A stretch of 64,000 nt of DNA from Vulcanimicrobiota bacterium (GTDB taxonomy: Bacteria > Vulcanimicrobiota > Xenobia > Xenobiales > JADMJV01), in assembly GCA_050250895.1 (NCBI GenBank), contig JBFWNU010000001.1, forward strand, positions 1,902,884 to 1,966,883, read 5' to 3'. The translations under genes were made by a program, and so were the position numbers. The notes beneath the pieces were generated by a model, which saw only the letters and a list, made by a program, of their open reading frames with translations, searched no databases and had not been told where the DNA came from. Numbering within the stretch: position 1 is the stretch's first letter; each line of letters opens with the position of its first letter. Shown piece by piece: positions 43,947 through 64,000 of this stretch.

Positions 43947-43948
43947 CC

Positions 43949-46733: not shown

Positions 46734-46775
46734 TTAAAAAGAAGAGAGAACCGCACGGCTGCGCGGTTCTCTCTT
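46734..46775 (-). terminator. intrinsic terminator downstream of the tRNA 3' end
   Basis: 13-bp stem AAGAGAGAACCGC (46742-46754) / GCGGTTCTCTCTT (46763-46775), followed by a T run on the minus strand. Confidence 0.8.
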
Positions 46776-46822
46776 GGTGGGTCGTGTAGGATTTGAACCT
46801 ACGACCACCTGATTAAAAGTCA
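46775..46822 (-). other. 3' fragment of tRNA-Lys(UUU); att junction of an integrated element
   Basis: Minus strand TGACTTTTAATCAGGTGGTCGTAGGTTCAAATCCTACACGACCCACCA covers anticodon loop, T-arm and CCA; upstream sequence lacks a D-arm and a full anticodon stem. Confidence 0.85.
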
Positions 46823-46980
46823 CACTCGGTCTGTGACGCTAGATGCCGACCCGTGTCGAGAAGTGCCATTTGACGCCGTTTCGATGTCGCTCTGTCTGGT
46901 CTCGTTCCGGGTCGTGTCGGCTTGTTGGTCCCCAGCCGGTCCCCAGGAGGCATTCTTAGGGACCAGACGAAGCGCCGCCC

Positions 46981-47955
46981 GTGCGATTGATATTTCCCGC
47001 TACCCTTCAACCAGTCCCGAACCTGAAAACCCGCGATGATAGTTTCGTCTTTCCTGATTTCCTAGAGATCGGGGCCGGAATCGCGTTGCACCGCCACCGC
47101 AAAGGCGACTTGCTACAGGAAGCGGCCCAGAACTATCACCAGCCCCCCGCGAATTTCTTTCTCCTACTCGAATCCGAACGGCTACTCAGCGACCTCAAGA
47201 CTCAGTGGCCGCGCGGAGTCGAGTTTCCGACCAACGAAAGAGTTCTGCACAAAGCCGCGATGAATTCGATGATGCGTCTACTCGTTTCACTCGTCCTGGC
47301 CGGCTACGTTTTCAATGGCAACCCTGCGCAACGCTTCTTTATCCAGGAGTCAGACACTGGGGGTTGGGGGATCGGTAGCTTCTTCACCAACCTTCCAGGG
47401 TATCGAGCGGTAAACATCAGCCTAGCGGAAAGCCCAGAGAGGTGGTGCGAGGAGACATTTCGACGCTGGTTCGACCTCCTGGCGCCGTACTATCGTCCAG
47501 AAATCGAATGCGAAGACCGTATTGGTATTGCGCTGAACTCATTCTGGCACGGGATGACGACACTCAAGTCAGACCAACAGGTTCTGTCCTACACGGTGGT
47601 CCTCGAAGCCCTCCTGGCCACCGGCTCGAACGAGATAACCCACCAGCTCGCTGAACGCGTAGCCTGCCTCTTGGCTACGGATGCGAGGGAGCGGCTTGCT
47701 CTCTACCACCGCACCAAAGGGCACTACAGGACCAGGAGCAACCTCGTTCATGGGAACCTCGCCAAGACCGGTCTGAAGGCTAGCGGTGCTAGGTGGGACC
47801 CGGCGGCCGTTCATGACCTGTTTACCCTGGCGCGCGGGGTTTTGCGAAAGGCCCTGGCCGACCCACCTTACTGCCAGCTTGTCAAAGCCAAGGACGACAA
47901 GCAACTGAACGAGTTCTTTCTAGAGCTGCTCTTCGGTGTTCGCGGACGCCAATAG
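46981..47955 (+). CDS. HEPN-domain protein (ApeA-like)
   Basis: LEALL..EITHQLAERVACLL..YRTRSNLVHG (Rx4H). Confidence 0.75.
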   Translation: MRLIFPATLQPVPNLKTRDDSFVFPDFLEIGAGIALHRHRKGDLLQEAAQNYHQPPANFFLLLESERLLSDLKTQWPRGVEFPTNERVLHKAAMNSMMRLLVSLVLAGYVFNGNPAQRFFIQESDTGGWGIGSFFTNLPGYRAVNISLAESPERWCEETFRRWFDLLAPYYRPEIECEDRIGIALNSFWHGMTTLKSDQQVLSYTVVLEALLATGSNEITHQLAERVACLLATDARERLALYHRTKGHYRTRSNLVHGNLAKTGLKASGARWDPAAVHDLFTLARGVLRKALADPPYCQLVKAKDDKQLNEFFLELLFGVRGRQ

Positions 47956-47996
47956 CCGCACGAAGACCGGAATGTATCATTACGGAGGTCCTGAGA

Positions 47997-48491
47997 ATGG
48001 ATGAAGTCAGCAAGATTCTAATAACTGCGATTGTCACCGCGATTTTTTCTGGGCTCTCGGCCGGCATAATGGTGCCACTTCTATCCGGCTGGTTCAACAA
48101 AACGTTCGATTTCTTCGGCTACAGACAGCAACAACTGTGGGACGCTCGCCAGAAGCTCTACGCCGAGATTGTCGGGTCTTTCACTAAAGCCAGACAGAAT
48201 CTTGACGTGTTCGAAGCCTCACAAACCGGGACGGAACAGCGTAACAAGGCCGTCAGACATTTCCGCAGAGCGGTGGAGTCAATGCGAACTGAACGTGACT
48301 CTTTAGCTTTACTCGCACCCTCGTCGGTGCGGGACGCATTTGCGGAGTTGCGCCGGACCGCCGAGCTGATATACGGAGGTTTAAAAGAGGTGCCAGACGG
48401 GTTCGAGTTGGACGAGCTGACCCGGAGCTTCTCGGAGGCTTACGACCCACTGCTCAGAGCAATGAGGGTCGATCTGGGTTTCGGAGAATGA
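47997..48491 (+). CDS. hypothetical single-TM protein
   Basis: N-terminal TM followed by a helical domain. Confidence 0.6.
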   Translation: MDEVSKILITAIVTAIFSGLSAGIMVPLLSGWFNKTFDFFGYRQQQLWDARQKLYAEIVGSFTKARQNLDVFEASQTGTEQRNKAVRHFRRAVESMRTERDSLALLAPSSVRDAFAELRRTAELIYGGLKEVPDGFELDELTRSFSEAYDPLLRAMRVDLGFGE

Positions 48492-48500
48492 ACAAGCCGC

Positions 48501-49013
48501 TCACAGCGTTGAAGCCGTTATCCACCACTTCTTGTGGAAGTCGTTGAAGTCTTCCATCTGGCGGGTCGACACGCCCAGCCAGCCGCCCTCCCACTTTTCG
48601 TAGGCCGGCTTGCCCGTGGGGGTCTTTAGTTTCTCGGGCAGCGTGCGAATCAGGTAGACCGGGTTTTCGCCGGCCTCGAAGTCCTTGCCGAGCTGGTAGA
48701 AGTCCTGGCCAGACAGCTTGAAGCAAGCGCCCTTGCGGTATTCGAGGACAACCTCTTGATACGGCTCGGGGTGCTCTTTGACGACCAGGGCGGCCGCGGT
48801 GAAGAGCACGCGGGTCACGTCGGCGGGGCTCCGCTCGCCAGAAACAGACAGCAGGTCGACCACCAGCATTTCGCCTTTGGCCCGGAGCGAGACCTCGATG
48901 CCAGCGTTCCGCAGGTCATCGGCCAGCTCGGTGGCCAACTTCTTGCTGTAATCGTCGGCACAGCCGGTCAGCAGTATGGCCGCCAGCAGCAGCCCCTTCA
49001 TCCAGGTCTTCAA
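48501..49013 (-). CDS. putative lipoprotein
   Basis: Lipobox ILLTGC. Confidence 0.7.
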   Translation of the reverse strand: MKTWMKGLLLAAILLTGCADDYSKKLATELADDLRNAGIEVSLRAKGEMLVVDLLSVSGERSPADVTRVLFTAAALVVKEHPEPYQEVVLEYRKGACFKLSGQDFYQLGKDFEAGENPVYLIRTLPEKLKTPTGKPAYEKWEGGWLGVSTRQMEDFNDFHKKWWITASTL

Positions 49014-49078
49014 GCTTGGTTCCCCCTCTTGGCATTGAATCGTAGAGGGAGCTTATACGTAACCCGTCTGGAGGCCTG

Positions 49079-49273: not shown

Positions 49274-49286
49274 GAAGACATCATAA

Positions 49287-49330: not shown

Positions 49331-49366
49331 GTGTATGCAAGAGAGATTCCACGGAGGTCAAACAGA

Positions 49367-49720
49367 ATGCGCGAAACCGTCACCCAGAAAGCTCACCGTC
49401 TCGTCGACAACTTCCGGGTCGTCCTGTTGGACAACCAGCCCGGCCTGGTCACCGCTGAGGTCATCGGCGACCACAGCACCTACACGGTGCGGTTTCGCCC
49501 CCACGGCGCCTTCTGCGGCTGCAAGTGGTTCCAGATGAAGGGCCACATCAAGCCCTGCAGCCACATCCTGGCCACCCGTCGGGCGATGGACGAGCCCGAG
49601 AGCCAGGAGCCGGTCAAGCGGCTGGCCGAGGCCCTACGGGCCAACCTGCCGGCCAAGAAGCCGCCCGTCGCGGTCACCGAGACGGAAGCCGACCTGCAGG
49701 CGCTCTTCAACTTCCGCTAG
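49367..49720 (+). CDS. SWIM zinc-finger protein
   Basis: YTVR..FCGC..PCSHILA (CxC..CxH); RBS GGAGG. Confidence 0.75.
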   Translation: MRETVTQKAHRLVDNFRVVLLDNQPGLVTAEVIGDHSTYTVRFRPHGAFCGCKWFQMKGHIKPCSHILATRRAMDEPESQEPVKRLAEALRANLPAKKPPVAVTETEADLQALFNFR

Positions 49721-49821: not shown

Positions 49822-50412
49822 ATGCTGCTCACCACCGCTCGCAAGCGTGAAATCGAAGCCACCGTCGAGGCCCTGCAGGCCCGTCACGGTGACCCGTCGG
49901 CCATCCCCGCCACCTACCTGGAGGAGGTGGTTAGAGCGGTGGGTTACCAGCTGGTCGACGCCGACCTGCCCGCGGGGGTGGCCGGCTGCTGCTACCCGCG
50001 GAGCCAGCGCATCTTGCTGAACCGCGACCTGGGCTCCATCCTGACCTACGACCGGGCCCCTCAGTTCCGCCTGGCCACACTGGCCCACGAGCTGGGTCAC
50101 GCGGTTCTGCACGAGCAGCTCATTTTGACCGGCCAGGCTCCAGCTGCAGTTATCGAGCCCGAGGCCCAGCACTTCGCGGCCGCGTTCCTGGTGCCCCGTC
50201 ACCTGGTCCTGGCGCGGCCCGAGGGGGCTCAGCTACTTCGAGCTCGTCGCGCGCGGTTCCGGTGGTCGTCGGGGCGTGTCTGGCGGAGCGTCCACCGACT
50301 GGCCGAGGTGTTTCAGGTGACCTCAACGCTGATGGCGTGGCGCCTCGCTGAACTTGGGGTGGTCGATGCTTGCGAGAAGCGGCCCTGTCGCTTGGTGCTT
50401 GCGGTTTGCTAA
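49822..50412 (+). CDS. ImmA/IrrE family metallopeptidase
   Basis: TLAHELGHAVLH; EAQHFAAAFLVP; LAEVFQVT; RBS AGGAGG. Confidence 0.85.
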   Translation: MLLTTARKREIEATVEALQARHGDPSAIPATYLEEVVRAVGYQLVDADLPAGVAGCCYPRSQRILLNRDLGSILTYDRAPQFRLATLAHELGHAVLHEQLILTGQAPAAVIEPEAQHFAAAFLVPRHLVLARPEGAQLLRARRARFRWSSGRVWRSVHRLAEVFQVTSTLMAWRLAELGVVDACEKRPCRLVLAVC

Positions 50413-50475
50413 GAGCCGACCGGAACATCAGACTGGTGGAATGAGAATGGGTAAGTCGTTTCGAAGTTCCGCGTG

Positions 50476-51732
50476 ATGAACATACGAGACATCGAGAATG
50501 CGTTCCAACCGGCAATAGAGGTCAAGGACCCGAAACGTTTCGCGGGTAGGAAGTCCTACGTGCAAGACGCATATCGGGCGCTTCTCTCTGAGGGAACGAA
50601 TATTGCGGTAGTTGGAAACAGAGGAATCGGAAAGTCTTCCCTTGCCCGCCAAATCGTGAGTATGGCGTCTGGACATGACGACCTTCTCAAAAAGCTGTCG
50701 ATTGACACAGACGCCCAGGCACCTGACTTCCTGGCAACCTATTTCGCGTGTGGCAACAGCGTTAGAACACTCGGCGATCTCCTAAACAGCTTATTGACGG
50801 ATAGCGACGCGTTGGGATCTTGGATCTATGACATTCCCAGCACAAAGACCATCATCGAGAAATACGCCCCAAAATTCAACGCCGGTTTCGCTTCCTTGGG
50901 GGGTGAGAAGTCTACGTCGACGACTTCCTCGAAGGCCATTCAACAACACGACGTCGAGTCGGTTTTTACCAATGTCGTTCGAGCCCTAGTCCAAGAATGT
51001 GTCGCTACCGACGGCCTGATAATCGTGGTCGATGAATTTGACCAAATCAAAGACCCGACTGGATTCGCATCCTTCCTAAAGTCCCTGGCGACGAACGTGC
51101 CTAAGGTTCGGTTTTGCATCGTTGGCGTGGCCCAGGACATTCAACAGCTGATGAAGGAACATGCCTCCGCCGACCGACTATTTTCGGGCTCGGTGCTGAC
51201 ACTTCCGCCGATGAATCCTGAGGAACTCACCGAGATTATCGAAATCGCCGAGTCCTCGATCAAGGGTAGCATTGTGTTCGACGAGAGTGCACGCCGAACG
51301 TTGGTCAAATTAGCCCAAGGACACCCTTACATGATTCACCTGATCGGAAAGGATGCTCTCAAGCAAGCTTTCCTAAAGAAAGACGAGACAATCACGCAGG
51401 CAGACATAGAAAGTGCGCTCCGAGGCATAGCCGAGAGGGGGACAGACCCAGTCTTAGAGGGTCGATACAAGAAGGCTGTCGCGTCATCACAGCATAGAGA
51501 GATAGTTCTTCGAGCGATGGCAAACTCCGTTTCTGGAGACGACGGGGAGATTCAGACCACCGCGGCATATCAACAGGCGTTGACTGAAGGAGTAGAAAAT
51601 TCCAGTCAATACGTAGGGCACTTGACGACTGAACAGTTCGGAGAGGAACTCGTGAAAGTCAGGGAGCGCTACTATCGTTTTCGGGATTCGCTCTTTCGAA
51701 CATACGTAACGCTTCGCCCACCGATCTTTTAA
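50476..51732 (+). CDS. AAA/STAND-like P-loop ATPase
   Basis: RFAGR; Walker A GNRGIGKS; Walker B IIVVDEFD; QGHPY. Confidence 0.8.
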   Translation: MNIRDIENAFQPAIEVKDPKRFAGRKSYVQDAYRALLSEGTNIAVVGNRGIGKSSLARQIVSMASGHDDLLKKLSIDTDAQAPDFLATYFACGNSVRTLGDLLNSLLTDSDALGSWIYDIPSTKTIIEKYAPKFNAGFASLGGEKSTSTTSSKAIQQHDVESVFTNVVRALVQECVATDGLIIVVDEFDQIKDPTGFASFLKSLATNVPKVRFCIVGVAQDIQQLMKEHASADRLFSGSVLTLPPMNPEELTEIIEIAESSIKGSIVFDESARRTLVKLAQGHPYMIHLIGKDALKQAFLKKDETITQADIESALRGIAERGTDPVLEGRYKKAVASSQHREIVLRAMANSVSGDDGEIQTTAAYQQALTEGVENSSQYVGHLTTEQFGEELVKVRERYYRFRDSLFRTYVTLRPPIF

Positions 51733-51802: not shown

Positions 51803-53569
51803 TTAGCCCTCGGAGAATAGACGGCCTTGTTGATGTCGAGGCGCTTTCACCTGTAGCGGTGGCTTTTTGCTCCACCTCGGTAGTTTCAACGGTGCCTGAA
51901 CTTCCTTGCCTGAGAGCAGGTCGGCCACCGTCAGTATCTGTAGAGTAGGATAGCGGTCATTCCCCACGGGTGTGTAAAACCCCGCGGATGCTGCCTCTTT
52001 TACCATCGGCTTAGATGGTTCTTGGAGTGTTATCAGGACCCCGATTGGGGTCTTGCCGCGTTTGTTTTCGCGCTCGATCACACCGCGCAGGTCGCGCACG
52101 TCGCGTGAGGTCACCTTGCCGCTCTTGACCGAATACACAATGGCTTTGTCATCACCGGTTCCAGGCTCTTTGAAGAAGCCTCGTCCGTCGATTCCCTGGT
52201 CTGCACCCTTCTTTTGTTGGTCCCGGGTGACTTTGGCGCCCACCAGGCCTAACGCCCACCATTGGAACTGGTAACGATCTTCGGCGGCGAGAACCTTTGC
52301 GCTCTCCAGGTCTTTGGGTTCACCCAAAACTTTGTAGGGAGCCAGTGAGTCGGGGAAAGCCTCCTCGATACGATGCCGAATCAGGCTCACCGCCAGGTGG
52401 GTGATGTCAATTCCTATCCACCTGCGCTCCAAGTGCTCGGCAGCGGCTACTGCGGTGCCGCAGCCACAAAACGGGTCTAGCACGATGCCTTCGGGTGGGC
52501 AAGCCGAGGTGATAATGCGGGCGAGCAGTCCGAGGGGCTTCTGAGTCGGATAGCCGAGCCGCTCACCAGACGTTGGCCCTAGCCACGACACGTCTTCGTC
52601 GATTCCGTGCTCCAAGTCCCCGTAGTAGTAGCCTTTCGTGTATGGCTGATACGCCCAAATGTCCTGATATGGGGTTCCAAGGTCAGAGTCTTCTTCGAGA
52701 TAGACCTTGATCATCGGAATGCCGCCAGGCTTGGCCGGTAGCTTGATGTAACCGGCATCGAGCAAGGCATCAAGCTTCTTTCTGGTTGGCAAACTGTTGT
52801 CTATCCCAAGACGCTCGCAAACCTTTCGAGGAGGCGCCCACGCTCGATTGCGCTCGGTGGGATTGAAGCCCTTCCATGGCTTACCTGAGTCGCCGTAACG
52901 CGGGCCCGGTCCGCAGGGGTCGTTAAGTTTATACTGGCCATACTCGTCACGATACTTGAACCGTTCATCCACGTGAGCTTGAGGGAGGGGCATCTTCTGG
53001 GGCTCAAAGTAGCAATTGTCTGACTTGGCGTAGAAGAATATCGTGTCGTGAATCTGCCCGAAACGCTTGGTGTCGTTGTGGGTGTTGGTCCGCCGCCAGA
53101 TAATCTCGTTGCGGAAGTTCTGTGGGCCGAAGATGGCATCCAAGAGGAGCTTCAAGTAATGACTCGATGTGGGATCGCAGTGCAAAAATAGGCTTCCACG
53201 GGCTTTCAGGACTCTGTGCATCTCCACCAGTCGCGGCGCCATCATCGTTAGATAGGCCATGGCATCGCTTCGACCTAGATAATCTAGCAATGCTGAGAGC
53301 AACTGTCTGAGCTTCGACTCGCTCTGATCCATCATCTCTTCAAACGCGTGCTCGGCCTCCACCCCCCAACGCCAGGTATCTTCGAAAGCGGTTATTTGAG
53401 CGGTCGAAGTCTCGCCGCTGTGCTCCCGAAACAGCACATTGAAATCTGCCTTCTTGTTGAATGGCGGGTCGAGATAGATGAGGTCTATTGATTCAGCGTC
53501 TACATACTCGCGAAGAATGACGAGGTTATCGCCGATATACAGCTGATTGCACCAGTTTTGAAAAAGCAT
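51803..53569 (-). CDS. N6/N4 DNA methyltransferase fused to a C-terminal Mrr-like restriction endonuclease domain
   Basis: LIYLDPPF; YPTQKP; DPFCGCGT; DQGIDG..SVKSG. Confidence 0.85.
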   Translation of the reverse strand: MLFQNWCNQLYIGDNLVILREYVDAESIDLIYLDPPFNKKADFNVLFREHSGETSTAQITAFEDTWRWGVEAEHAFEEMMDQSESKLRQLLSALLDYLGRSDAMAYLTMMAPRLVEMHRVLKARGSLFLHCDPTSSHYLKLLLDAIFGPQNFRNEIIWRRTNTHNDTKRFGQIHDTIFFYAKSDNCYFEPQKMPLPQAHVDERFKYRDEYGQYKLNDPCGPGPRYGDSGKPWKGFNPTERNRAWAPPRKVCERLGIDNSLPTRKKLDALLDAGYIKLPAKPGGIPMIKVYLEEDSDLGTPYQDIWAYQPYTKGYYYGDLEHGIDEDVSWLGPTSGERLGYPTQKPLGLLARIITSACPPEGIVLDPFCGCGTAVAAAEHLERRWIGIDITHLAVSLIRHRIEEAFPDSLAPYKVLGEPKDLESAKVLAAEDRYQFQWWALGLVGAKVTRDQQKKGADQGIDGRGFFKEPGTGDDKAIVYSVKSGKVTSRDVRDLRGVIERENKRGKTPIGVLITLQEPSKPMVKEAASAGFYTPVGNDRYPTLQILTVADLLSGKEVQAPLKLPRWSKKPPLQVKAPRHQQGRLFSEG

Positions 53570-57600: not shown

Positions 57601-58293
57601 CTCGAGGTCCTCGCCGGCCACGGTCGCGACGCTGCCCGTCTTGGTGAGGACGGCGCCGTATTTCTTCAGGTCCTGGCTCGACACTCCGTAGGTGTTGCGG
57701 AGTGACTCGAAGCCCTCGAGGCTGCCGGACAGCGCCTTCCCTACGACAAGGGCCGTCTCGTTGAGGTTGCGGCCCATCCCCGCGGCCAGGTCGGCCACGC
57801 GGGGAAGGACTTCCTGGCTCCGCTGCCCGTAGACCTCGAGTTGAACAGTGGCTTCGACAATGCCCCGCACATCAAACGGTGTACGAGCTGCCAGCTGCTT
57901 GGCTGCCTCGAGGGTCTTTTGGGCCCTGGCCGACGAACCCTGAACGGTCTCGAGTCTGCCCTGCAGTTGCTCGAACTCGCTGGAGATGCGAACGGCGTTG
58001 GCCAGGATGAGGGCCAGCCCGGCACCGGCCGCAGCGGCGGCCACGCCGAAGCCCTTGCCCAGCTCGGTGACCTGGCCTTGGAGCTCCCGATGGTCGTTCT
58101 TGACATGTTCCAGCTCGTTGCTGAGTCCGCGGAAGCGCTCGGTCGCGCCCCTTCCGACCTGGTCCAATTGGACGTTCGCCTCTCGGGCTGCGCGTCCCAC
58201 CCTGTCGATGCCCTTCTCGAGGTCATCAAGGGTCTTCCTGAAAGAGGGGTCTGTCCGAGCGAGAACCTTGAAGATAAGAGCGGTTTCTGGCAT
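54664..58293 (-). CDS. phage tail tape-measure protein
   Basis: 1209 aa, helical; ARTPFDVRGIVEATVQL..VADLAAGMG..TLQGSLSNAADA tape-measure domain; central Ala/Gly hydrophobic segments; long coiled coil. Confidence 0.85.
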   Translation of the reverse strand: MPETALIFKVLARTDPSFRKTLDDLEKGIDRVGRAAREANVQLDQVGRGATERFRGLSNELEHVKNDHRELQGQVTELGKGFGVAAAAAGAGLALILANAVRISSEFEQLQGRLETVQGSSARAQKTLEAAKQLAARTPFDVRGIVEATVQLEVYGQRSQEVLPRVADLAAGMGRNLNETALVVGKALSGSLEGFESLRNTYGVSSQDLKKYGAVLTKTGSVATVAGEDLEKARQALLRLIQVRFGGAIDRQAKTLQGSLSNAADAVTNFAAKFGDDLAPAVQVGAQIFTKMVEVAGSVPDTFRQIATFGAVATAGLLVLGGGAVTATAGLAAMNQQLALAAVNGFPAAGRAAVVTGSALKGLGAVAGTVGGVMTILTTTIAGPLVAALAIANLATLNYARTQERLGQAIGEQARTIQDSRATLRSITSVVNDLAKEQGVFVERTNDASKFAEQFGKALDNIPAGRLAARLVALGYTLDELKKKLAENREAADERRRQIQALQEAIAKAPPITDSTIQVTDELKTLFPDSWYVSVDEANEALQLLQQEFSDLGQEATALRQAQQKVAAISPDLKALTEETARLKDYLNFAGATGSVDNLKGALSELDAQLARNNEKLKKAALPTSFEGLQRALLEGADQVTEQQRAVIQEQLGLLKTREQLQSSITDKTQQKAKEEVDAVERSLREQKSLREVSTSEEIAELERALAAAKRLGQAGLDDAIQIREKIKAVRAQEAKDAEETAKKLVEGQLKAATQAVTEVKNQQGATAAEVVDQIDLVLTSLQKWRDKNRQLLDDYPELSEQLKEFTDRLTGERGQQATKALADNFNQLKQQVADFSAGATNATQRLEANARAIALIKSAQRRGSIDTATADQELRGLARERLGLEQQITNERRAQADEVAALQIQAVQQEIDLLQTRLQAGEAVEDQLMAKRLELQKVRLEAIDRELQADLAAGKDRELAEQKARLKREAILREGTINRKRELAEQEKDQAAGVARQNAQTGLQTATASLQPPAGAPEGPTPTADPRLTPDQALTGGSTAPSLADLRAKATDDRARRADSFRRSNQLGLELVSQIDESRRTAAVERDTPRLQRAQELFRERLSDKLDRAGVVDSLRAAAAQTAPQVPTFEDIGQAQRKAATPKGSPLDSGGAPKSAPTTINQTFHTTFGPHVTVTPKIEELVNQVAQEIAKQVKRGSLRDGGAGRLGS

Positions 58294-58823
58294 CAGTCCT
58301 CCTGCATGATGCGGTCGGTCGCCTGCTTGACCGCGGCTTGCTCGTAGAGTCGAAGGCCGTGCTCGAAGATCTCGTCGATCTGGTTGACCCGGTCTTGAAG
58401 GGCCAGCACAGCTTGAACGGTCTCCAGGCTACACTGGCGCAGCAGGTCGGGGTCGGCCGGTGGCCCGCCGTCGGTCGGGTGGCGGAGCGCCTGCAGCAGC
58501 AATCCGGTCAGGTTCGACAGCATCCTTTCGACGGCGTCGGCCATCGTCGGGGCCTCGGTGCCCATGTCCTGGATGTCAGCCAGAGCAGATCGAGCTGCAT
58601 CCTCCTGGGCCTGCAGGTAGACCGGCAGCTGGTCGAGCGGCCAGGCCGTCACGGCGAAGGTCCGGCTCGAGCCGTCGGTCAGCTCGAGCACGAACTCTTC
58701 TCGGCGAGGGCGCAGGATGAGGCGCCCTTCCTCGTCGCGGGGTAGGTCCAACTCGGGCCGCGGCCGGGCCTGCACGGCGAAGTTGGCAAAGAGGCCAACG
58801 AGGGGGGAGAGGGAGGTATTCAT
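58293..58823 (-). CDS. hypothetical protein, possible tail assembly chaperone
   Basis: 176-aa acidic helical ORF immediately upstream of the TMP gene. Confidence 0.5.
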   Translation of the reverse strand: MNTSLSPLVGLFANFAVQARPRPELDLPRDEEGRLILRPRREEFVLELTDGSSRTFAVTAWPLDQLPVYLQAQEDAARSALADIQDMGTEAPTMADAVERMLSNLTGLLLQALRHPTDGGPPADPDLLRQCSLETVQAVLALQDRVNQIDEIFEHGLRLYEQAAVKQATDRIMQED

Positions 58824-59125
58824 CTGTTCTTCTTCCTTTCGGGTTTGGTTGAGACGCGAAGCGCCTCCGTAAAGGCCAGGGTGAGGCCGAGAACAAAGGC
58901 GTCCCAGCTTTCGGGCGTGTAGGCCCAGGGCTTGCCAGCTCCGCCGTGAGCCGACTTCCCAGCCTGGTGAGTGACCTTTTCGAAATCGCCTTCCGTCCAC
59001 CAACAGCCCTCCGCTTCGCACTGGTCGAGGATGCCGACAAACTTCTCTTTGCCGTCGACGTGAAGGGCGATGGTTTCCCGTTGGTTGTCGGGGTTGCGGT
59101 CCCACTTGAAAACGATCTGGTTCAC
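58820..59125 (-). CDS. hypothetical phage protein
   Basis: RBS AGGAGG; coupled to the next gene. Confidence 0.55.
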   Translation of the reverse strand: MNQIVFKWDRNPDNQRETIALHVDGKEKFVGILDQCEAEGCWWTEGDFEKVTHQAGKSAHGGAGKPWAYTPESWDAFVLGLTLAFTEALRVSTKPERKKNR

Positions 59126-59133
59126 GGGTCCTC

Positions 59134-59523
59134 CTAGAACGGGATGTCGTCAATCCCGAGGCCGTCGCTTTGCCTCGGTGGTTGGGGCTGCCGGCGAGGT
59201 TCCTGGGCCGGCGGGGCCTGCTGGGGTGGCGCCGCCTGCAGGTAGACCTGCAAGTCCGGGTCGCGGTCGTCGTTCTTCTGCTGGTTGGCGAAGACCAGCA
59301 CGCGAGCGCCGCCGAGGCGGCCAACGTAGTAGCGGGTTCCGTTCTTGGATTCGCGGGCCCAGAGGCCGCAGAGCGGGACCTTCGCGGGATAGGATTCGCT
59401 CATCGAGTTGCCTTTCTGCCCGCTTGGCACGGGCTTGGGTTTGGTGGGTGGAGTGGGGGTGGGTTGATTTAGTGGTCGGTAGAAGTCGATAGCAGCCTGA
59501 CGGGCCGCTCGTGAACGGTTCAT
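59134..59523 (-). CDS. DUF736-like / SSB-like protein
   Basis: GLWARESKNGTRYYVG..DPDLQVY; acidic C-terminal tail DDIPF. Confidence 0.7.
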   Translation of the reverse strand: MNRSRAARQAAIDFYRPLNQPTPTPPTKPKPVPSGQKGNSMSESYPAKVPLCGLWARESKNGTRYYVGRLGGARVLVFANQQKNDDRDPDLQVYLQAAPPQQAPPAQEPRRQPQPPRQSDGLGIDDIPF

Positions 59524-59771
59524 AGTTCCTCCAGGTGGGGTAGGATGGCCCGGCTGGCCGCCAGGTTCCACGGCGCGGGCTTCAGGGCGCAGGGCTTGGC
59601 CACGAAGTACTCGCGACCGCCGTAGGTGAAGGTCTCACCCCAAAAAGCTAGCTCGACATCCTCCACCAGCCTGGCCCGCCCGATGAGCTGGCCTTCAACG
59701 ACAAGGTCGACCAGGGCGACCACGGGCGGGGCTGGGATTTCTGGATACCAGCAAACAAAAGACACCTTCAT
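59520..59771 (-). CDS. hypothetical protein
   Basis: Short ORF overlapping both neighbours by 4 bp. Confidence 0.45.
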   Translation of the reverse strand: MKVSFVCWYPEIPAPPVVALVDLVVEGQLIGRARLVEDVELAFWGETFTYGGREYFVAKPCALKPAPWNLAASRAILPHLEEL

Positions 59772-60619
59772 GCCGCCCCCCAACAGTCGACCGAAAGCGC
59801 CTGGTCGGCGAGGTCGAAGAGTCGCTTCAGGGGGCAGCACCTGCCTAGCGAGCCAGTTTCCATCTCCTCCTGGACGCGAGCGAAGGCTTCTCTGATAGCT
59901 TGCTGGAGTTTGTGGGGTGGTAGGGGGAGGTCTAGGAAGTCTTGTTTTCGCTTTTGCACATACCGCGGGGCCCGGCTCATCTTGCTGGGGGCCAGACGGG
60001 TAAGCAGCTTCTGAAGCCAGGAATCGAAGAGAATCTTCCCACCTCCCCCCTCTTGGGGGGTAAGGGGGGTACTGTCTTTATGTCTTTCCTTGTCTTTAGA
60101 CCCCTCGGAAAGGCTTTTGCCAGAAGGCTCAGACGGGGGTGAAAGGGGGGCCTGGAGGGAACCCTTTGTGGGGGCCTGGAGGGTACCCTTTCTGTGCCCT
60201 CCGGTATCCCCTTTCTCATGCGAAAGGGTTCCCGGAGCTACCCCCTTTTCTTGGTCTGAAAGGGGTCCCTCCGGTATCCCCTTTTCATCGGGTCGGGCCG
60301 TACGACTCGAACCCTTGGGGGTGTTGGGTGGTGGTGGCCAGTTCAAGCTGAGTTCACTCTTGGCGCCGCGGTGGGTGCCTTGAGCGTGTCGGTGAAGTAG
60401 GCCGGCGCTTGTCAGGCTCCGAAGAGCTGTGCGAATCACCTTCTTGGTGTGGCCCGTCAATGTCATCAGCTCAGCGACAGTGATACGCACCCGCTCAACC
60501 CTCCATCCCCAGGTTTCGCGCTCGATGATGTCCAGAACGTCGCGCTCTGAGCCACGCAGGCCCTGTTTCGCAAGGTGCCGCGGCCAATCGTTCGGCCGTT
60601 GATACCAACCGTGACTCAT
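59768..60619 (-). CDS. phage replication initiator (lambda O-like wHTH)
   Basis: ERDVLDIIERETWGW..ITVAELMTLTG..IRTALRSL..GLL; low-complexity centre carrying DNA repeats. Confidence 0.75.
   Translation of the reverse strand: MSHGWYQRPNDWPRHLAKQGLRGSERDVLDIIERETWGWRVERVRITVAELMTLTGHTKKVIRTALRSLTSAGLLHRHAQGTHRGAKSELSLNWPPPPNTPKGSSRTARPDEKGIPEGPLSDQEKGVAPGTLSHEKGDTGGHRKGTLQAPTKGSLQAPLSPPSEPSGKSLSEGSKDKERHKDSTPLTPQEGGGGKILFDSWLQKLLTRLAPSKMSRAPRYVQKRKQDFLDLPLPPHKLQQAIREAFARVQEEMETGSLGRCCPLKRLFDLADQALSVDCWGAA
60142..60286. repeat. iteron-like repeats inside rep (putative origin)
   Basis: GGGGGCCTGGAGGGWACCCTTT twice (60146, 60170); CCCTCCGGTATCCCCTTT twice (60197, 60267). Confidence 0.65.
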
Positions 60620-62010
60620 TGGAGGTCGCCTCCGAAGTCAAGACTGTCCCAGCTCTCGTCTGGGACGGATTCGCAAACCTGCCGGGGCACAAGAGCCGGC
60701 TCAAACCGGGTGAGTCGTCCCACCCATCGAAGCCGGATGTTGACGAGCTCGCCGTTTCGGCGCTTGCGCACGTAGAGCCACGCCTCTTCTGGGTCGGCGT
60801 TCTTGCTGAACATCACCGGCCGATGGAGCATCAAGACCAGGTCGGCATCCTGTTCCAGGTGGCCCGACTCGCGAAGGTCGCTCAGCTGAGGGGTCTTGTC
60901 TGGGCGCCTTGTCACGTCGCGGCTCAGCTGACACAGCACGATGACGGCCAGGCCGGTGCGCCGAGATAAGGCCTGCAGGACCCTGCTCGCCTCGCTGGTC
61001 TGCTCATAGTCGCGCCGGCCGAGGTGGCCCAGGTGGTCGATGACCACCGCCTTGGCGTCGGGGTGCCGAATCACGAATCGCTCGATTTGACCCAGCACCG
61101 TGGCCAGCTCCTGGCCCGCGGGGCCCAGCTGGTCGAGGATGTAGAGCGGGCACCGGTCGCGCAGGCGCTCTTCCAGCTCGAGCGCCACGCCCGCTGAAGG
61201 CACGACCTCGCGGAGCTGGGCGACGTAGCGGCCGGCCAGTTCAGCGCCGGGCATCTCGCCGGACACGTAGAGCGTTGGCCCATGTTGGCCCGCGATGTGC
61301 TTTGCAAGAGCGCCCGTCAAAGCCGACTTGCCCATCGAGGGGCGTCCGGCGATGATGGTCATCGCGCCCAGCGGCAGGCCGCCGTTCTCATCGAGCGCCG
61401 GGAGCCCGGTAGTCAGGCCCGTCTTTGTGTCGGCGTTCTCCTGCAGTTCTCGGGCAAGCTCGGCCATGGCGTCGGCAATATGAACCGGCTCATGCCGAAG
61501 ACCGCGCCCTGTGGCCCTGACCAGGTCGTCAGCGACCCTAATGGCCAGGGCCGTCGCGTCAGCGTCAGGCGACCGCAGTTCGCTCAGCAAGTGCCGGGCA
61601 GCGCGCTCTATCTCGCGCCGCTGGGCCTGCTTGACCACCAGGTCGACCAGGGCGAAGGCCGCCGAGTCGGTTGAGTCTACATCGGTGGCCAGTACGGCCT
61701 GAAGCGCCTCTGGGTCGAGGTGCTCGGCCAGCAGGTGAGGGTGAACCCGGTGGCCTCGCTTGACCAGCTCCCGCAGGCCGCGATAGCCGCGCCTGGCGGC
61801 CAGGTCCGCGAAGTCTGATTCTACGGCGACCCGCAGAAGGTAGGCGGTCCGGTTCTCCGACTCGAGGGCGCAACGGATGGCGCGCCGTTCGGTGAGGGCG
61901 GCCGGGGACGTTTGCGCGTTGTCTTTGGATGGCGTAGTATGGTGGTGACGCCGTTTGTCACCCTTGCCCCCCTGGTCGCCAGCCTTCGGGGCTCTTTCAT
62001 TTTCGGGCAT
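60616..62010 (-). CDS. dnaB: DnaB-like replicative helicase
   Basis: IAGRPSMGKS; VIDHL; LCQLSR; LSDLRESGHLEQDAD; KRRNG. Confidence 0.9.
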   Translation of the reverse strand: MPENERAPKAGDQGGKGDKRRHHHTTPSKDNAQTSPAALTERRAIRCALESENRTAYLLRVAVESDFADLAARRGYRGLRELVKRGHRVHPHLLAEHLDPEALQAVLATDVDSTDSAAFALVDLVVKQAQRREIERAARHLLSELRSPDADATALAIRVADDLVRATGRGLRHEPVHIADAMAELARELQENADTKTGLTTGLPALDENGGLPLGAMTIIAGRPSMGKSALTGALAKHIAGQHGPTLYVSGEMPGAELAGRYVAQLREVVPSAGVALELEERLRDRCPLYILDQLGPAGQELATVLGQIERFVIRHPDAKAVVIDHLGHLGRRDYEQTSEASRVLQALSRRTGLAVIVLCQLSRDVTRRPDKTPQLSDLRESGHLEQDADLVLMLHRPVMFSKNADPEEAWLYVRKRRNGELVNIRLRWVGRLTRFEPALVPRQVCESVPDESWDSLDFGGDLQ

Positions 62011-62102
62011 CTTTCGTCCTTATGGCGGTGGAATCTGTAACTCCATCGTGTGATACCTCCTCACTGTCTTGACAGAAATTCAATCCGTCGGTCAAAAAAA
62101 AA

Positions 62103-62285
62103 TCAATCGCCTTCGAGTAGCCGCCGCAACCGACACAAAGGCACCAGCAGGCGCCGTCCAACTCGGATTGTGGGGATGTCCCCCCGACGGGCTGCAGCAT
62201 AGCTAGACTGGCGGCCTAGACCAAGCATTCGGCCGGCCTTTGGCACAGAAATGGCCAGGGGCTTCTCTTCGGGCTTGGCATTCAC
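62103..62285 (-). CDS. excisionase-like HTH protein
   Basis: ISVPKAGRMLGLGRQSSYAAARRGDIPTIRVGRRLLVP. Confidence 0.8.
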   Translation of the reverse strand: MNAKPEEKPLAISVPKAGRMLGLGRQSSYAAARRGDIPTIRVGRRLLVPLCRLRRLLEGD

Positions 62286-62509
62286 GCCGAGGCCGCTTCC
62301 TGCTCGGTGGCCACCACCAGGGTTTCTACGGGTATGCCGGTGACCTTCGAAAGTCGCATGAGCACTCCCACGCTCACACCGATCACGCCCCCCATCTGCT
62401 GGTAAAAGGTGTCTTTGGTCACCCCGATTTTGTTGGCAAGCCAAACAAAGGTTCGACCTTCTCGCGCCTTCCAGCGCCGAAGCTCGCTCTGGTTGAGGCG
62501 ATACTGCAT
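62282..62509 (-). CDS. Cro-like HTH regulator
   Basis: WLANKIGVTKDTFYQ..LMRLSKVTGIPVETL; divergent from the repressor. Confidence 0.7.
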   Translation of the reverse strand: MQYRLNQSELRRWKAREGRTFVWLANKIGVTKDTFYQQMGGVIGVSVGVLMRLSKVTGIPVETLVVATEQEAASA

Positions 62510-62539
62510 GTCCAAAGCTTCAAGCCTCCTCTCTCTTGA

Positions 62540-62635
62540 TTTAAAAAGTTTCAAACTTAGTTTACCATTGTCTGGAGGTTTGTCAATCTGATATGGTAAA
62601 CTTGTTTGTATCATAAGTTTGGAACTTAGTTAGAT
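62540..62635. promoter_or_regulatory. divergent repressor/cro control region with operators
   Basis: AT-rich; AAGTTTCAAACTT (62546-62558) and AAGTTTGGAACTT (62615-62627); inverted pair AGTTTACCAT/ATGGTAAACT; minus-strand TTGACA at 62586-62581. Confidence 0.65.
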
Positions 62636-63229
62636 ATGAACTTCAAACAAAGTTTTGGGCGGCGTTTACGCTCTGCCCGCAATGAGCGCGGGCTTTCGCA
62701 ACGCGAATTAGCCGAGCTTCTGGGGGTGAGTGCGGCCGTGGTTTCGGATTGGGAGGTCGCCAAGTCGAGTCCTCAGCTCGAACGGCTGGAGCAAATAGCT
62801 TCTCACCTGCAGAAGTCACCGGCCTGGTTTTTTGTCGAGGAGGACGCCGGTTCAAGGGGTGTTGAGGTCGCGGCAAGCTCGCCAGAGATGGTCGACCTTT
62901 TGAACAGCGCAGCAGATTTCTGTGAACGCGAAGGTCAACGGGCGAAACTCCACGCCGAGGCTTTCGCCTGCTTTCAAAGATACTTCGAAGCCGTCGGTTC
63001 GATGACTCTTGCAAGCCTGTCGCAGGAGCAAAAGGAGGCTTTGAGTTTCACGACCACCCAGAGGCTATTCGACGCGGGTCAAATGGAACCGGAGGTGATG
63101 GAGTTCGCCGACGATGGCCCGGGAGTGGTGATTACTGGGAGTGACCTGCTAAACACTATTGAGGCGCACCTTGCGGGCTCATTGAGGGAGTTGCGTCGTC
63201 TTGACGCAGGCCGTGGGGGTCAAGCATGA
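62636..63229 (+). CDS. XRE-family (CI-like) repressor
   Basis: FGRRLRSARNERGLSQRELAELLGVSAAVVSDWE. Confidence 0.85.
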   Translation: MNFKQSFGRRLRSARNERGLSQRELAELLGVSAAVVSDWEVAKSSPQLERLEQIASHLQKSPAWFFVEEDAGSRGVEVAASSPEMVDLLNSAADFCEREGQRAKLHAEAFACFQRYFEAVGSMTLASLSQEQKEALSFTTTQRLFDAGQMEPEVMEFADDGPGVVITGSDLLNTIEAHLAGSLRELRRLDAGRGGQA

Positions 63230-64000
63230 GAGGGCACATCCAGAAGCGGGGCAACGGTTACCGGGTCGAGATTCACATCGGCTACGACGAGCAAGGCAAG
63301 CGGATTCGCCACCGCCAGACACTCTCGACCAAGAAGGCGGCCGAGAAGTACATGCGTGCCAAGCTCGACGAGCTGGAGACCGAAGGCGGCATCCGCGCGA
63401 AGAGCCTCGAGACACTGGAAGCCTATCTCAAGCGGTGGCTAGAGGTGTCGGCCGCGCCCCGCGTCAGGCAGCGCACGCTGGAGGACTACACCGAGAAGCT
63501 TCGTGGCTACGTCTTCGAAACGCCGCTCGGCCGCAAGCCGCTCGCCACGGTCACGCCGAGCGACATCCAGGAGCTTTACGCATCGGTGCAGGCCCGAGTA
63601 AAGGCGTCAGGCCGTGGCAACGGCGTGACCTCGGTGAAGCGCCTTCACGCGGTGCTGAGGAGCGCCATTAACCAGGCGGTGAAGTGGCGTCTGCTCACTC
63701 AGAACGTCTGCCTGTTTGTCGACCTACCGAAACAAAATCGGGCCGATGACCCGTATGGCCGCCAGCACAAAAAGGAGGTCCTTCAGACAGAGGATTTCCC
63801 GGCCTTCATCCAGGCCGCCCTACAGGAAGAGCGCCTCGGGGCAATGTGGGTTCTGGCGCTGCAGACCGGCCTGCGCCCTGGTGAGTATCTGGGTCTTCAG
63901 TGGGCCGACTTCGGACCGAACCTTCGCCAGTTCACCGTCAACCGCGCCCTGGTCCGGGTGCGCACCGAGGACGGACAGGGTTGGCGGTTCGAGGAGCCCA
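63226..64000 (+). CDS. int: tyrosine integrase (truncated by the window end)
   Basis: Manual translation from ATG 63226: MRGHIQKRGNGYRVEIHIGYDEQGKR (arm-binding) ... ALQTGLRPGEYLGLQWADF (box I Arg). Confidence 0.9.
   Translation, partial: MRGHIQKRGNGYRVEIHIGYDEQGKRIRHRQTLSTKKAAEKYMRAKLDELETEGGIRAKSLETLEAYLKRWLEVSAAPRVRQRTLEDYTEKLRGYVFETPLGRKPLATVTPSDIQELYASVQARVKASGRGNGVTSVKRLHAVLRSAINQAVKWRLLTQNVCLFVDLPKQNRADDPYGRQHKKEVLQTEDFPAFIQAALQEERLGAMWVLALQTGLRPGEYLGLQWADFGPNLRQFTVNRALVRVRTEDGQGWRFEEP

Follow-up and report, generated by a model that had tools for sequence, protein, structure and literature searches.

PLE11 of Vibrio cholerae builds chimeric tails with its own tape measure protein (TMP), which excludes that of the helper phage, and encodes a tail assembly chaperone (PMC12987554, Nature 2026). 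The use of an own TMP has been shown only recently, in these cholera-phage satellites (PMC12987554). EPIPs of Mycolicibacterium aichiense are likewise small satellites reported to have a TMP and tails that differ in length from those of the helper (PMC12822802, bioRxiv 2025). Putative tmp genes are also reported for cf-PICIs, which are unrelated to PLEs (PMC12987554, Extended Data Fig. 10 legend). A sequence-only reading of the locus presented here had pointed to the TMP and chaperone of PLEs, which PMC12987554 confirms, and knew of no such report in the lineage. Literature searches found none either; the strategy itself is published for PLEs and EPIPs. SatelliteFinder treats tail profiles (80) as forbidden components for PICI and cfPICI, and it may reject a TMP-carrying element if the TMP is among these profiles (PMC10085698).

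The element from an uncultured Eremiobacterota bacterium (class Xenobia; genome 99.6% complete) resembles PLEs as an integrated satellite that has no capsid genes and brings a TMP and a tail assembly chaperone of its own (PMC12987554). The described PLE helper is a non-resident phage, and likewise no resident helper was found here. This helper, ICP1, has a contractile tail, whereas the relatives of the Eremiobacterota TMP belong to siphophages (PMC12987554). Neither the baseplate hub BhuB nor the inhibitor Rta, both encoded by PLE11, was recognised in the Eremiobacterota element. Replication and regulation modules differ from those of PLE by description, and unlike in PLE, a gene of its own, placed downstream of the TMP and read without a frameshift, encodes the G-T chaperone (PMC12987554). 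EPIPs are smaller (about 11 kb), carry a serine integrase and encode TerS, head-tail adaptor and stopper, scaffold and major capsid protein, none of which was found here (PMC12822802). PICIs, SaPIs and P4 resemble the element in having an integrase at one end, a divergent switch, their own replication module and defence cargo and in being much smaller than phages; their Pri-Rep, TerS and capsid-redirection gene were not found in it (PMC10085698). The cf-PICIs differ in having their own capsid, portal, TerL and connectors, all missing from the Eremiobacterota element (PMC12987554).

The element was located in a window of 64,000 nucleotides, the whole stretch of DNA analysed. It measures 18,041 bp between the two copies of an 86-bp direct repeat, which are 98.8% identical. 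The left attachment repeat (46737..46822) consists of a tRNA-Lys 3′ end and 38 nt downstream. The right copy lies just past the window end (L002:1576-1661, window-equivalent 64692-64777) and includes the 48 nt at the 3′ end of tRNA-Lys(ttt), with the tRNA at L002:1614-1688. A complete tyrosine integrase of 395 aa (63226..64000, plus strand; phrog_1 5e-35) runs off the window to the equivalent of position 64413 (full ORF L002:110-1297), inside the repeats and adjoining tRNA-Lys. Because the integrase sits within the repeats, no part of the element lies beyond it, and because it abuts the tRNA-Lys repeat, no space is left past it for the head or tail genes that would have spoken against the earlier reading. 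The earlier reading had placed the integrase at one end and an att site at the other, which agrees with the repeats; its start at 46775 is near the left end, but inside the left repeat instead of at its edge. The ends are marked by the repeat at tRNA-Lys, the integrase gene is whole and the coupled operon has no break, which shows the element to be intact and bounded. It evidently integrates into the 3′ end of tRNA-Lys by its tyrosine integrase.

Integrase and repressor are followed leftward by a cro-like HTH gene, an HTH_17 ORF, a DnaB-like helicase, a RepO-like initiator, three small ORFs, a 176-aa ORF, the 1209-aa TMP and a 219-aa ORF, and then by cargo and the left repeat. Start and stop codons overlap as ATGA or TGATG at six junctions (dnaB/repO, repO/orf83, orf83/orf129, orf101/orf176, orf176/TMP and TMP/orf219), in line with the tight coupling noticed before. 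The genes evidently form a single translationally coupled leftward operon, leading from cro over DnaB and O-like replication to a three-gene tail-initiation cassette.

A CI/Cro-type switch is clearly recognisable. The CI-like HTH repressor (197 aa, 62636..63229, plus strand; HTH_3 1.5e-16, phrog_8 7.6e-17) adjoins a divergent control region (62510..62635) with AAAC(T)...(A)GTTT palindromes, read from the sequence, and a promoter-like site for the leftward operon. This site, TTGACA-16-TG-TAAACT at 62586-62559 on the minus strand, is the sole one in 9.8 kb (0.7 expected). The Cro-like HTH regulator (62282..62509, minus strand; HTH_31 2.7e-5) has an ORF open to 62614, where its start had been set in the earlier reading. 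Met at 62509 is probably the start: the first 40 codons are low in third-position GC, and the promoter-like site lies upstream of 62509. The Xis/AlpA-like HTH_17 ORF (62103..62290, minus strand) has an uncertain start, and its match was obtained on the 62103-62444 ORF (HTH_17 E 1.7e-4, 22.2 bits, under the cut-off). Replication is represented by a DnaB-like replicative helicase (464 aa, 60616..62010, minus strand; DnaB_C 2.8e-47, phrog_19 1e-56) and a lambda O-like initiator (283 aa, 59768..60619, minus strand; Phage_rep_O 2.5e-6 with 28.3 bits against a cut-off of 28.7 bits, phrog_678 2.6e-7). Of the small ORFs, orf83 (59520..59771, minus strand) has ATGA overlaps on both sides and no family match, and orf101 (58820..59125, minus strand) has no match in Pfam, PHROGs or PADLOC and no relative among the related loci compared. 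The third, orf129 (59134..59523, minus strand), is a small phage-like protein; its translation closes with DDIPF, a motif resembling an SSB tip. In the Atlas it falls closest to clusters of small viral or phage proteins, 11-15% of whose members have DUF736. An assignment as 'ssb' was rejected on this clustering and the lack of a Pfam or PHROG match. The gene order proposed from the sequence alone (int-repressor / cro-xis-dnaB-rep-orf-ssb-orf-orf-TMP-orf) holds, except that 'ssb' is not a recognisable SSB and the xis match is weak.

The TMP (1209 aa, 54664..58293, minus strand) matches Pfam TMP_3 (1e-6; 29 bits, below Pfam's 41-bit cut-off) and nine PHROG TMP families (best 2.7e-9). Its sequence contains long coiled coils and hydrophobic segments rich in Gly/Ala; a PDB profile search matched coiled coils only. 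Homologues in siphophages of the same phylum sit between chaperone and distal tail genes. In all four contexts scanned in complete siphophages they come after the genes for major tail protein and chaperone, and the same canonical position is found in 17 of 20 IMG/VR loci. Judged by sequence, the family of the 1209-aa protein is a true tape measure.

Both ORFs flanking the TMP, unnamed in the earlier reading, are identifiable as homologues of the tail assembly chaperones G and G-T. The start and stop of the G-type gene (176 aa, 58293..58823, minus strand; phmmer 8.7e-8, profile 2.6e-40) overlap the neighbouring genes, and its phmmer match is a 160-aa gene between the major tail protein and TMP of phage G070_C6. 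The G-T type (219 aa, 54008..54667, minus strand) is a separate gene downstream of the TMP, needs no frameshift and has an ATG overlapping the TMP stop. Its C-terminal half matches -1-frame 'T' ORFs upstream of phage TMPs (phmmer 2.4e-11, 2.5e-9 and 5.3e-8; profile 2.1e-73); the similarity of its N-terminal half to the G profile is weak (hhalign probability 51%, E 1.5e-4). In the phage versions, the overlap of G and T contains the slippery site GGGAAAC, in phase.

Capsid, portal, large terminase, tube and lysis genes were not detected by Pfam or PHROGs on 21 ORFs, and iterated profiles for 17 phage families, built from proteins of related phages, had no match in the element. For head, packaging and tube genes these searches uphold the earlier impression that none is present. 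TerS and a cos or pac signal were not found in the tRNA-Lys element. Relatives of capsid, portal, TerL, tube, tip and lysin were absent from the eight element intervals searched. The bacterium's own genome had no match to HK97 or lambda-type capsid, TerL_ATPase or portal families, and the proteins of four related phages matched only its two TMPs. A helper prophage with a related TMP, as envisaged in the sequence-only reading, was not found there.

Syntenic integrase-replication-TMP elements, also envisaged, amount to nine in total at different sites, all with intact integrases. The second element in the same genome (17,830 bp, tRNA-Arg, contig C8) is paralogous, and the two have no non-coding DNA in common. 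Seven further elements are found in other records (G050, G058, G066, G074, G054, the G401 unit and L099). Six of them are bounded by 49-112-bp repeats at six additional tRNA genes; the G401 unit is delimited by a 16,922-bp tandem period, not by tRNA repeats. Five of the nine have sizes of 17.7-18.4 kb despite differing cargo and two of 13.3 and 13.5 kb, against 38.0 kb for a complete prophage at the orthologous tRNA-Lys of a related genus. Genes of the related loci were called with a crude GC3-based caller. Other members have additional genes of the hijacking type: TerS-like ones occur in three and head-protease-like ones in two of the nine elements. Chaperone homologues were detected in three of nine only.

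In a TMP tree of 23 rows, the element's TMP is sister to that of phage G070. Satellite TMPs are scattered among phage TMPs, each grouping with a different one. The satellite label changes eight times, at least five of these changes being forced, which is no better than with shuffled labels and therefore indicates repeated TMP exchange with phages. On one IMG/VR contig, phage and satellite TMPs have 95% identity in the first 922 nt and no difference beyond.

The element most likely borrows the remaining virion parts from a helper phage, because it is without head, packaging-motor and tail-tube genes yet keeps a TMP and two chaperones. We consider it reasonably likely that it is an intact helper-dependent satellite of a previously undescribed Eremiobacterota family, building chimeric tails as in Vibrio PLE11. 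The earlier proposal of a satellite that swaps its TMP into helper virions or blocks the assembly of helper tails is supported. A non-resident siphovirus would infect the cell or be induced, and the element would then derepress, excise and replicate. The satellite TMP, coated by its own G and G-T, would recruit the helper tail tip and major tail protein via the T domain. The resulting virions would combine helper heads with chimeric tails containing the satellite tape measure, as for PLE11 with ICP1. Possible pay-offs are an escape from tail-assembly inhibitors and the control of DNA entry, as the TMP is ejected into the recipient's envelope. Siphophage heads and tails assemble separately, so that a private TMP would not obviously favour the satellite's own particles, which is a point against this reading. 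The missing resident helper and packaging signal, the TMP_3 match below its cut-off and the detection of chaperones in only three elements count against it too.

TMP and chaperones may instead act mainly as dominant-negative decoys that titrate the tip and tube subunits of an infecting siphophage. Such an interference island would be mobile, protect the population and need not ride in particles built with its TMP; we regard it as rather unlikely. The mobile-element gene Tai reportedly acts on a TMP-dependent step of tail assembly. Tab (PMC10884400) and Rta of PLE11 (PMC12987554), also mobile-element genes acting on such a step, establish tail assembly and the TMP as proven defence targets. By their descriptions, Tab and Rta (80 aa) are inhibitors, whereas the Eremiobacterota element encodes a TMP of full length together with chaperones. 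The defence-like cargo and the location of the TMP in an early replication-coupled operon, not a late one, are consistent with interference. A decoy, however, need not keep its full length or both chaperones, and eight of nine elements have intact TMPs (958-1500 aa). The clustered sizes and the TerS-like and head-protease-like genes of relatives point to encapsidation. Interference and a virion-tail role are compatible with each other.

A function outside virions, as a membrane-inserting or DNA-transfer protein of a particle-free integrative element, is improbable. The hydrophobic segments and coiled coils would suit it, as would the lack of a packaging gene in the tRNA-Lys element, but the proteins most closely related to it are tape measures from canonical tail modules of phages, the flanking genes are homologues of two chaperones whose known job is tail assembly, and no relaxase, coupling-protein or secretion family was among the Pfam and PHROG matches on the element's ORFs. 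That the element is a decaying prophage, stripped of head and tail genes by deletion, is very improbable. In its favour are the phage origin of TMP and chaperones and the 38.0-kb prophage, a complete one, that occupies the orthologous tRNA-Lys of a related genus. Nine independent elements nevertheless have the same reduced content at nine different sites, with intact integrases and near-perfect repeats, and each of their TMPs joins a different phage TMP in the tree, which contradicts the one-off deletion weighed in the earlier reading. The order (replication, G, TMP, G-T) is unlike that of phages, G-T is rebuilt without a frameshift and the operon is unbroken and tightly coupled. An autonomous small virus with structural genes too divergent to recognise is hardly credible: six ORFs are without assigned function, but five of these have 83-170 aa, no ORF is left for portal or large terminase, and the iterated profiles were negative. 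The sixth, the only unassigned ORF of capsid-protein length, lies in the cargo on the opposite strand and has HEPN-like neighbours.

The remainder of the element is recognisable as defence-like cargo. Next to the operon, a DNA methyltransferase is fused to an Mrr-like nuclease domain (51803..53692, minus strand; N6_N4_Mtase 1e-39, Mrr_cat 8.9e-4, PADLOC MTase_II 2.7e-55). It is followed by a defence-like STAND-type NTPase (419 aa, 50473..51732, plus strand; nSTAND1 1.1e-12, phrog_6841 6.6e-30, PADLOC mad8 1.9e-6) and an IrrE/ImmA-type M78 metallopeptidase (49822..50412, plus strand; Peptidase_M78 5.4e-10, PADLOC capP 3.5e-10, RmrA-like matches), whose ORF is open from 49525 and likely starts at 49822. 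The 324-aa ORF (46981..47955, plus strand) has no Pfam or PADLOC match. Its structure neighbour in the Atlas bears the name 'HEPN domain-containing protein' (TM 0.69), and 11% of the named cluster nearest to it have HEPN_Apea, so far a lead only for a HEPN-like identity. Two ORFs without a family match in Pfam, PHROGs or PADLOC have a hydrophobic N-terminus (164 aa, 47997..48491, plus strand) and, by eye, a lipoprotein-like signal sequence (170 aa, 48501..49013, minus strand). A SWIM zinc-finger-like ORF (129 aa, 49331..49720, plus strand; PADLOC SWIM_XIII 9.8e-6, Pfam SWIM E 0.0054, under the cut-off) has a homologue in the cargo of the G050 satellite (4e-15).

The element lies at the right end of the window in a host genome of 9.5 Mb (17 contigs, 99.6% complete). 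Its integrase gene crosses the window end and, continued into the stretch directly to the right (L002), encodes a full-length tyrosine integrase of 395 aa (L002:110-1297). About 300 nt past the integrase lies a five-tRNA cluster, of which tRNA-Lys(ttt) is nearest, with its 3' end towards the integrase. An 86-bp repeat comprises the last 48 nt of tRNA-Lys(ttt) and 38 nt downstream, and its copy is located at window positions 46737-46822 with 98.8% identity. Leftward of the tRNA, 67 kb were searched, reaching about 23 kb beyond the left edge of the window, and contained no further copy. Measured by the repeat pair, the element is 18,041 bp long, and the integrase lies directly within one of its ends. 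The left start at 46775 in the sequence-only reading falls inside the left repeat. The position of the integrase just inside the repeat-bounded end excludes head or tail genes beyond it within the att boundaries. The initial observation holds: the element is bounded by repeats and carries a tape measure protein (TMP) gene, and no capsid, portal, large terminase (TerL) or tail tube gene was found in it.

Pfam and PHROGs annotations identified a CI-like HTH repressor followed by the integrase in the rightward direction. The leftward genes start with a Cro-like HTH protein, a Xis/AlpA-like ORF (HTH_17, weak), a DnaB-like helicase (DnaB_C, 2.8e-47) and a lambda-O-like initiator. The element thereby brings a module of its own for regulation and replication, made up of the CI/Cro-type HTH pair, the helicase and the O-like initiator. 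Next come three small orphan ORFs of 83, 129 and 101 aa, then orf176, the TMP of 1209 aa and orf219 (176 and 219 aa for the two ORFs). The control region has several AAAC(T)...(A)GTTT palindromes, and the promoter-like site of the leftward operon at 62586-62559 is the sole one found in 9.8 kb. ATGA or TGATG overlaps of start and stop codons at six junctions between dnaB and the last gene bear out the description as a tightly coupled operon. The proposed ssb gene had to be abandoned. Its product, orf129, cannot be recognised as an SSB: no family matched it, and the Atlas clusters closest to it consist of small phage proteins, of which a minority have DUF736. Its C-terminus reads DDIPF, the motif at the tip of bacterial SSB. 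For orf83, orf101 and orf129, no relatives were present in the loci compared.

Among the 21 ORFs, Pfam and PHROGs searches detected no capsid, portal, TerL, tube, tip or lysin gene, with a reach for the small ORFs that is limited by profile sensitivity. The same two collections revealed no small terminase (TerS) or capsid-morphogenesis gene. The seeds of the iterated profiles were taken from 17 families of phage proteins: TerL, portal, head morphogenesis, protease, decoration, capsid, adaptor, neck, two tube types, the tail assembly chaperone G, five post-TMP proteins and endolysin. In this element, chaperones alone matched. The virion-related genes are G, TMP and a G-T-like chaperone only; no ORF is left that is fit for a portal or a large terminase. 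A Phi6_P8 match on a hydrophobic part of the TMP (8e-4) was set aside as chance or composition.

The evidence from the TMP's own sequence is modest. It reaches 29 bits against Pfam TMP_3, below the cut-off of 41 bits, and matches nine PHROG tape-measure families with E-values of 2.7e-9 to 8e-5. A PDB sequence search with the TMP profile returned coiled-coil proteins only. A large protein collection contains about 50 relatives of 699-1546 aa. Across the searches, the closest relatives in named records are from Vulcanimicrobiota bacterium, UBP9, Candidatus Xenobia bacterium and Candidatus Eremiobacteraeota. The N-terminal 400 aa matched at 28 places, spread over 20 of the 401 genomes sampled from the phylum. 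Eleven of these places were taken with their flanks and, together with two in the own genome, gave 13 classified places. Six of the 13 are siphophage-type prophages, in which the TMP homologue comes after head genes, the major tail protein and a chaperone and before distal tail genes (four shown by PHROGs on 85 ORFs, two by profile searches). All four phage contexts scanned with PHROGs have the canonical slot of chaperone genes, TMP and distal tail genes. In IMG/VR, the context was phage in 17 of 20 loci and satellite-like in one; two loci were too short. These phage-tail contexts settle the identity: the 1209-aa protein belongs to a family of true tape measures of phages infecting this phylum.

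The neighbours of the TMP gene complete a tail-initiation cassette. The phage gene located between those of the major tail protein and the TMP encodes about 150-160 aa, and a second ORF, in the -1 frame, overlaps and follows it. In both phages checked with that motif, the overlap contains GGGAAAC as an in-phase slippery heptamer. A G gene and a -1-frame ORF with a slippery site are the G / G-T arrangement of lambda. Upstream of the satellite TMP, orf176 matches the phage G protein (phmmer 8.7e-8, profile 2.6e-40), and downstream the C-terminal half of orf219 matches the 'T' ORFs in the -1 frame of the phages (2.4e-11, 2.5e-9 and 5.3e-8), all E-values of these in-house searches referring to small local databases. 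The N-terminal half of orf219 is weakly similar to the G profile (hhalign probability 51%, E 1.5e-4), including a near-invariant QD.LN motif. Thus G, TMP and a G-T-like protein are all encoded in the element, the last without the need of a frameshift. In the classic mode, both chaperones share the N-terminus and the longer one arises by a -1 frameshift upstream of the TMP, whereas the satellite G-T is a separate gene downstream. By their sequences, satellite and phage chaperones are homologous and differ in their expression mode. The satellite of another genome of the phylum (G058) has the same layout: there, the protein upstream (157 aa) and the one downstream (218 aa) are similar to one another (3e-11) and also match the G and T parts of the phages. 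The downstream G-T gene is also present in a metagenome-contig locus (L099). A PDB sequence search with the chaperone profile gave nothing below E 0.46. The two-gene layout is a natural experiment on why phages set the chaperone ratio by programmed frameshift.

Eight more elements of like build were found in the own genome and in other records. In the own genome, tblastn with the element proteins located a second element on contig C8 (17,830 bp, L004:432-18261), bounded by perfect 48-bp repeats at tRNA-Arg(cct). The gene order is the same: integrase, repressor, cro, DnaB, O-like initiator, small ORFs, a 1208-aa TMP and a small ORF. No head genes were found in it. The two TMPs of the genome have nearly the same length, 1208 and 1209 aa, yet their identity outside residues 100-300 is only about 30%. 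Neither BLASTP nor phmmer detected similarity between the small ORFs of the two elements, and their DNA comparison showed no common non-coding segment that could be a packaging site. A phrog_10899 TerS match on a 147-aa ORF of the C8 element (8e-4) was set aside as chance or composition. This element also carries an internal tRNA-Glu(ttc) gene (L004:2634-2702).

At five places in other genomes, an integrase and a primase or helicase occur together with small ORFs and a TMP, and tRNA-derived repeats bound each of these elements. They are at tRNA-Met in G066 (18,271 bp), tRNA-Trp in G058 (18,389 bp), tRNA-Thr in G074 (17,708 bp), tRNA-Ala in G054 (13,253 bp) and tRNA-SeC in G050 (26,368 bp). TerL, portal, capsid and tube were not found among their 111 ORFs. 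Wider scans yielded five loci in a genome-contig collection and nine in a metagenome-contig collection, with one new satellite, L099 (13,518 bp, tRNA-Gln). The IMG/VR contig G401 contains a unit with a tandem period of 16,922 bp. With nine elements in all, the type is recurrent and conserved and not a single remnant. In G074 (L039/L040, G074:C69, context 19974-22783), two overlapping ORFs (704 and 271 aa) take the place of a single TMP gene, owing to a frameshift, a sequencing error or decay.

The iterated profile search covered eight element intervals, that is, those other than L099. The exceptions to an absence of virion proteins were chaperones (this element and G058) and head-protease-like proteins (G066, L043:16343-17545; G058, L037 about 18520-19188); the head-protease profile also had an N-terminal fragment match in the G401 unit. 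The G066 and G058 proteins match positions 72-288 of the 381-position head maturation protease profile (phrog_976 type), not the C-terminal part, and may be capsid-assembly modifiers. TerS-like genes are present in three of the nine elements, G050, G058 and L099 (PHROG 2e-12; Pfam Terminase_2 and Sf6_terminase below cut-off). Such extras are as expected of elements that tamper with virion assembly.

Element sizes are 17.7, 17.8, 18.0, 18.3 and 18.4 kb, 13.3 and 13.5 kb, 16.9 kb and 26.4 kb. Five of nine fall within 17.7-18.4 kb despite differing cargo and even differing replication genes, and a packaging-size constraint is the simplest explanation. The clade's phages are much larger: a prophage in another genome (G060:C5) has 38.0 kb and IMG/VR contigs have 40-45 kb. 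An 18-kb element doubled or a 13.4-kb one tripled is close in length to the 38-kb prophage; speculatively, this could reflect packaging, and a size of about 18 kb could equally fit a smaller capsid.

A TMP tree was calculated from the N-terminal 520 aa of 23 TMPs (8 satellite, 15 phage). The satellite label changes eight times on this tree, at least five changes are forced by well-supported branches, and the number is not lower than with shuffled labels. Satellite and phage tape measures have thus been exchanged many times. The TMP of this element is the sister of that of prophage G070_C6 (SH-aLRT 92). The TerL ORF of this prophage has only 286 aa, and a pair of IS-type transposases is located among its head genes (L035:5193-6053 and L035:10316-11541); this copy may be defective.

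The contig G401 connects a phage and a satellite. A phage left arm runs via the major tail protein and a chaperone into the TMP, followed by the tandem satellite-like unit. A 9,416-bp repeat from the TMP start codon on (38727-48142 and 55649-65064) is 99.54% identical, and all 43 differences are in the first 922 nt of the TMP. A 267-bp segment is common to the phage early region and the satellite with 94.8% identity. The likeliest explanation for this sequence is that the assembler crossed from phage to satellite through a near-identical TMP. If so, the join probably presents a candidate helper-satellite pair with an almost shared tape measure.

A complete siphophage prophage of 38.0 kb with a TMP of the family occupies the orthologous tRNA-Lys(ttt) in a related genus (G060:C5; L045, L046, L086). 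It has 71-bp repeats and the same five-tRNA cluster, and its integrase is only 27% identical to that of the satellite. The own genome offered no helper: PF05065, PF03864, PF03354 and PF04860 (HK97- and lambda-type capsid, TerL_ATPase, portal) had no match, and phrog_2 had weak P-loop matches only (E about 3e-4). The TMP_3 matches of the genome are the two satellites, and the proteins of four related phages matched only the two satellite TMPs and host genes. A helper, if any, would come from outside this genome, as ICP1 does for PLEs. Among public runs, one DNA run contained 10% of the sampled words, and no RNA run was listed. The contigs of the DNA run covered relatives in short and diverged pieces, and a usable junction of an excised or circular form was not found.

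Among the operational marks of a satellite, the element shows an integrase with att repeats, a regulation and replication module, few virion genes, a small size and recurrence; induction, packaging and transfer solely with a helper phage, a further mark, would be predicted. The comparative genomics of nine elements, with their repeats, integrases and reduced virion content, supports the reading of the element as a phage satellite of a recently established kind. In the sources consulted, the demonstration of satellites that supply a tape measure themselves dates only from 2026, for the Vibrio PLEs (PMC12987554), and a 2025 preprint reports on mycobacterial EPIPs (PMC12822802). PLE11 of Vibrio cholerae is described as encoding a TMP, a chaperone and a baseplate hub; its chimeric tails with the own TMP, documented by western blot, mass spectrometry and tail-length measurement, are reported to be thereby insensitive to its own inhibitor Rta (PMC12987554). 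The same report lists putative tmp genes in PLE-like elements and cf-PICIs (PMC12987554). A TMP and a tail assembly chaperone are encoded here too, a likeness in function only. The strategy is in common, the genes are not as far as tested, and no baseplate-hub family was matched in Pfam and PHROGs. The Mycolicibacterium EPIPs are reported to combine a TMP with genes for capsid, scaffold, TerS and connectors, a serine integrase, an adaptor and a stopper (PMC12822802). The element differs in that its integrase is of the tyrosine type and that searches for a capsid, an adaptor or TerS in it gave no match. It also departs from the PICI core set, with DnaB-like and O-like proteins in place of Pri-Rep and no TerS or capsid-morphogenesis gene found. 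Tail genes are forbidden in that set, whereas this element has a TMP and two chaperones. According to its description, SatelliteFinder treats tail profiles as forbidden components for PICIs and cf-PICIs (PMC10085698). As tail genes are disqualifying in this main satellite-finding tool, such satellites may be under-counted, a possible blind spot. At the level of titles and abstracts, no paper tied Eremiobacterota, Vulcanimicrobiota or Xenobia to satellites or tape measures. The family is an addition apparently unrelated to PLEs and EPIPs, in a phylum for which the literature searched held no phage or satellite system. To our knowledge, the phylum has a single cultivated representative.

Comparative evidence points to the tail cassette as the conserved hallmark, with nine elements, repeated TMP exchange with phages and a chaperone gene rebuilt without frameshift. 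By analogy to PLE11 and from the complete G / TMP / G-T cassette, chimeric tails would be built with the satellite's own tape measure. Interference of the cassette with helper tails is a live alternative that is compatible with this mechanism; the defence Tab is reported to block tail assembly via the TMP of the invading phage (PMC10884400). A wider reading starts from chimeric tails and is a tentative proposal that we consider unlikely to hold in all its parts together. The phylum would harbour a satellite family with the tail-initiation cassette of G, TMP and frameshift-free G-T as its main hijacking tool, repeatedly re-acquired from the current helper siphophage. The satellite would gain at the DNA-entry step through its private tape measure, and its particles would inject where TMP-directed exclusion or tail-assembly defences stop the helper. 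The narrow size classes of about 18 and 13.4 kb would stem from packaging, either as fixed multiples of a helper headful of about 38-40 kb or in smaller capsids. If the DNA-entry part is true, the TMP is a host-entry determinant owned by the satellite.

The remaining 7 kb of the element are cargo with a G+C of 0.52-0.58, compared to 0.61-0.69. Four genes encode a methyltransferase with a fused Mrr-like domain, a STAND NTPase, a peptidase of the M78 (ImmA/IrrE) type and a SWIM-like protein. Of the three other ORFs, one is lipoprotein-like, a small one is membrane-like, and the third encodes 324 aa, with HEPN-like neighbours as a lead that it may itself be HEPN-like. A phrog_2666 TerL match on the STAND ATPase (E 0.0078) was set aside as chance or composition. 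Directly outside the left repeat, a HipA-like kinase and a HIRAN-domain protein are encoded on the minus strand (window 45017-46688). This pair may be what is left of an earlier island at this site, though a further repeat copy was not found. It has a low G+C (0.53-0.56) and matches the PADLOC candidate defence pair PDC-M03A/B (2.1e-88 and 1.3e-66).
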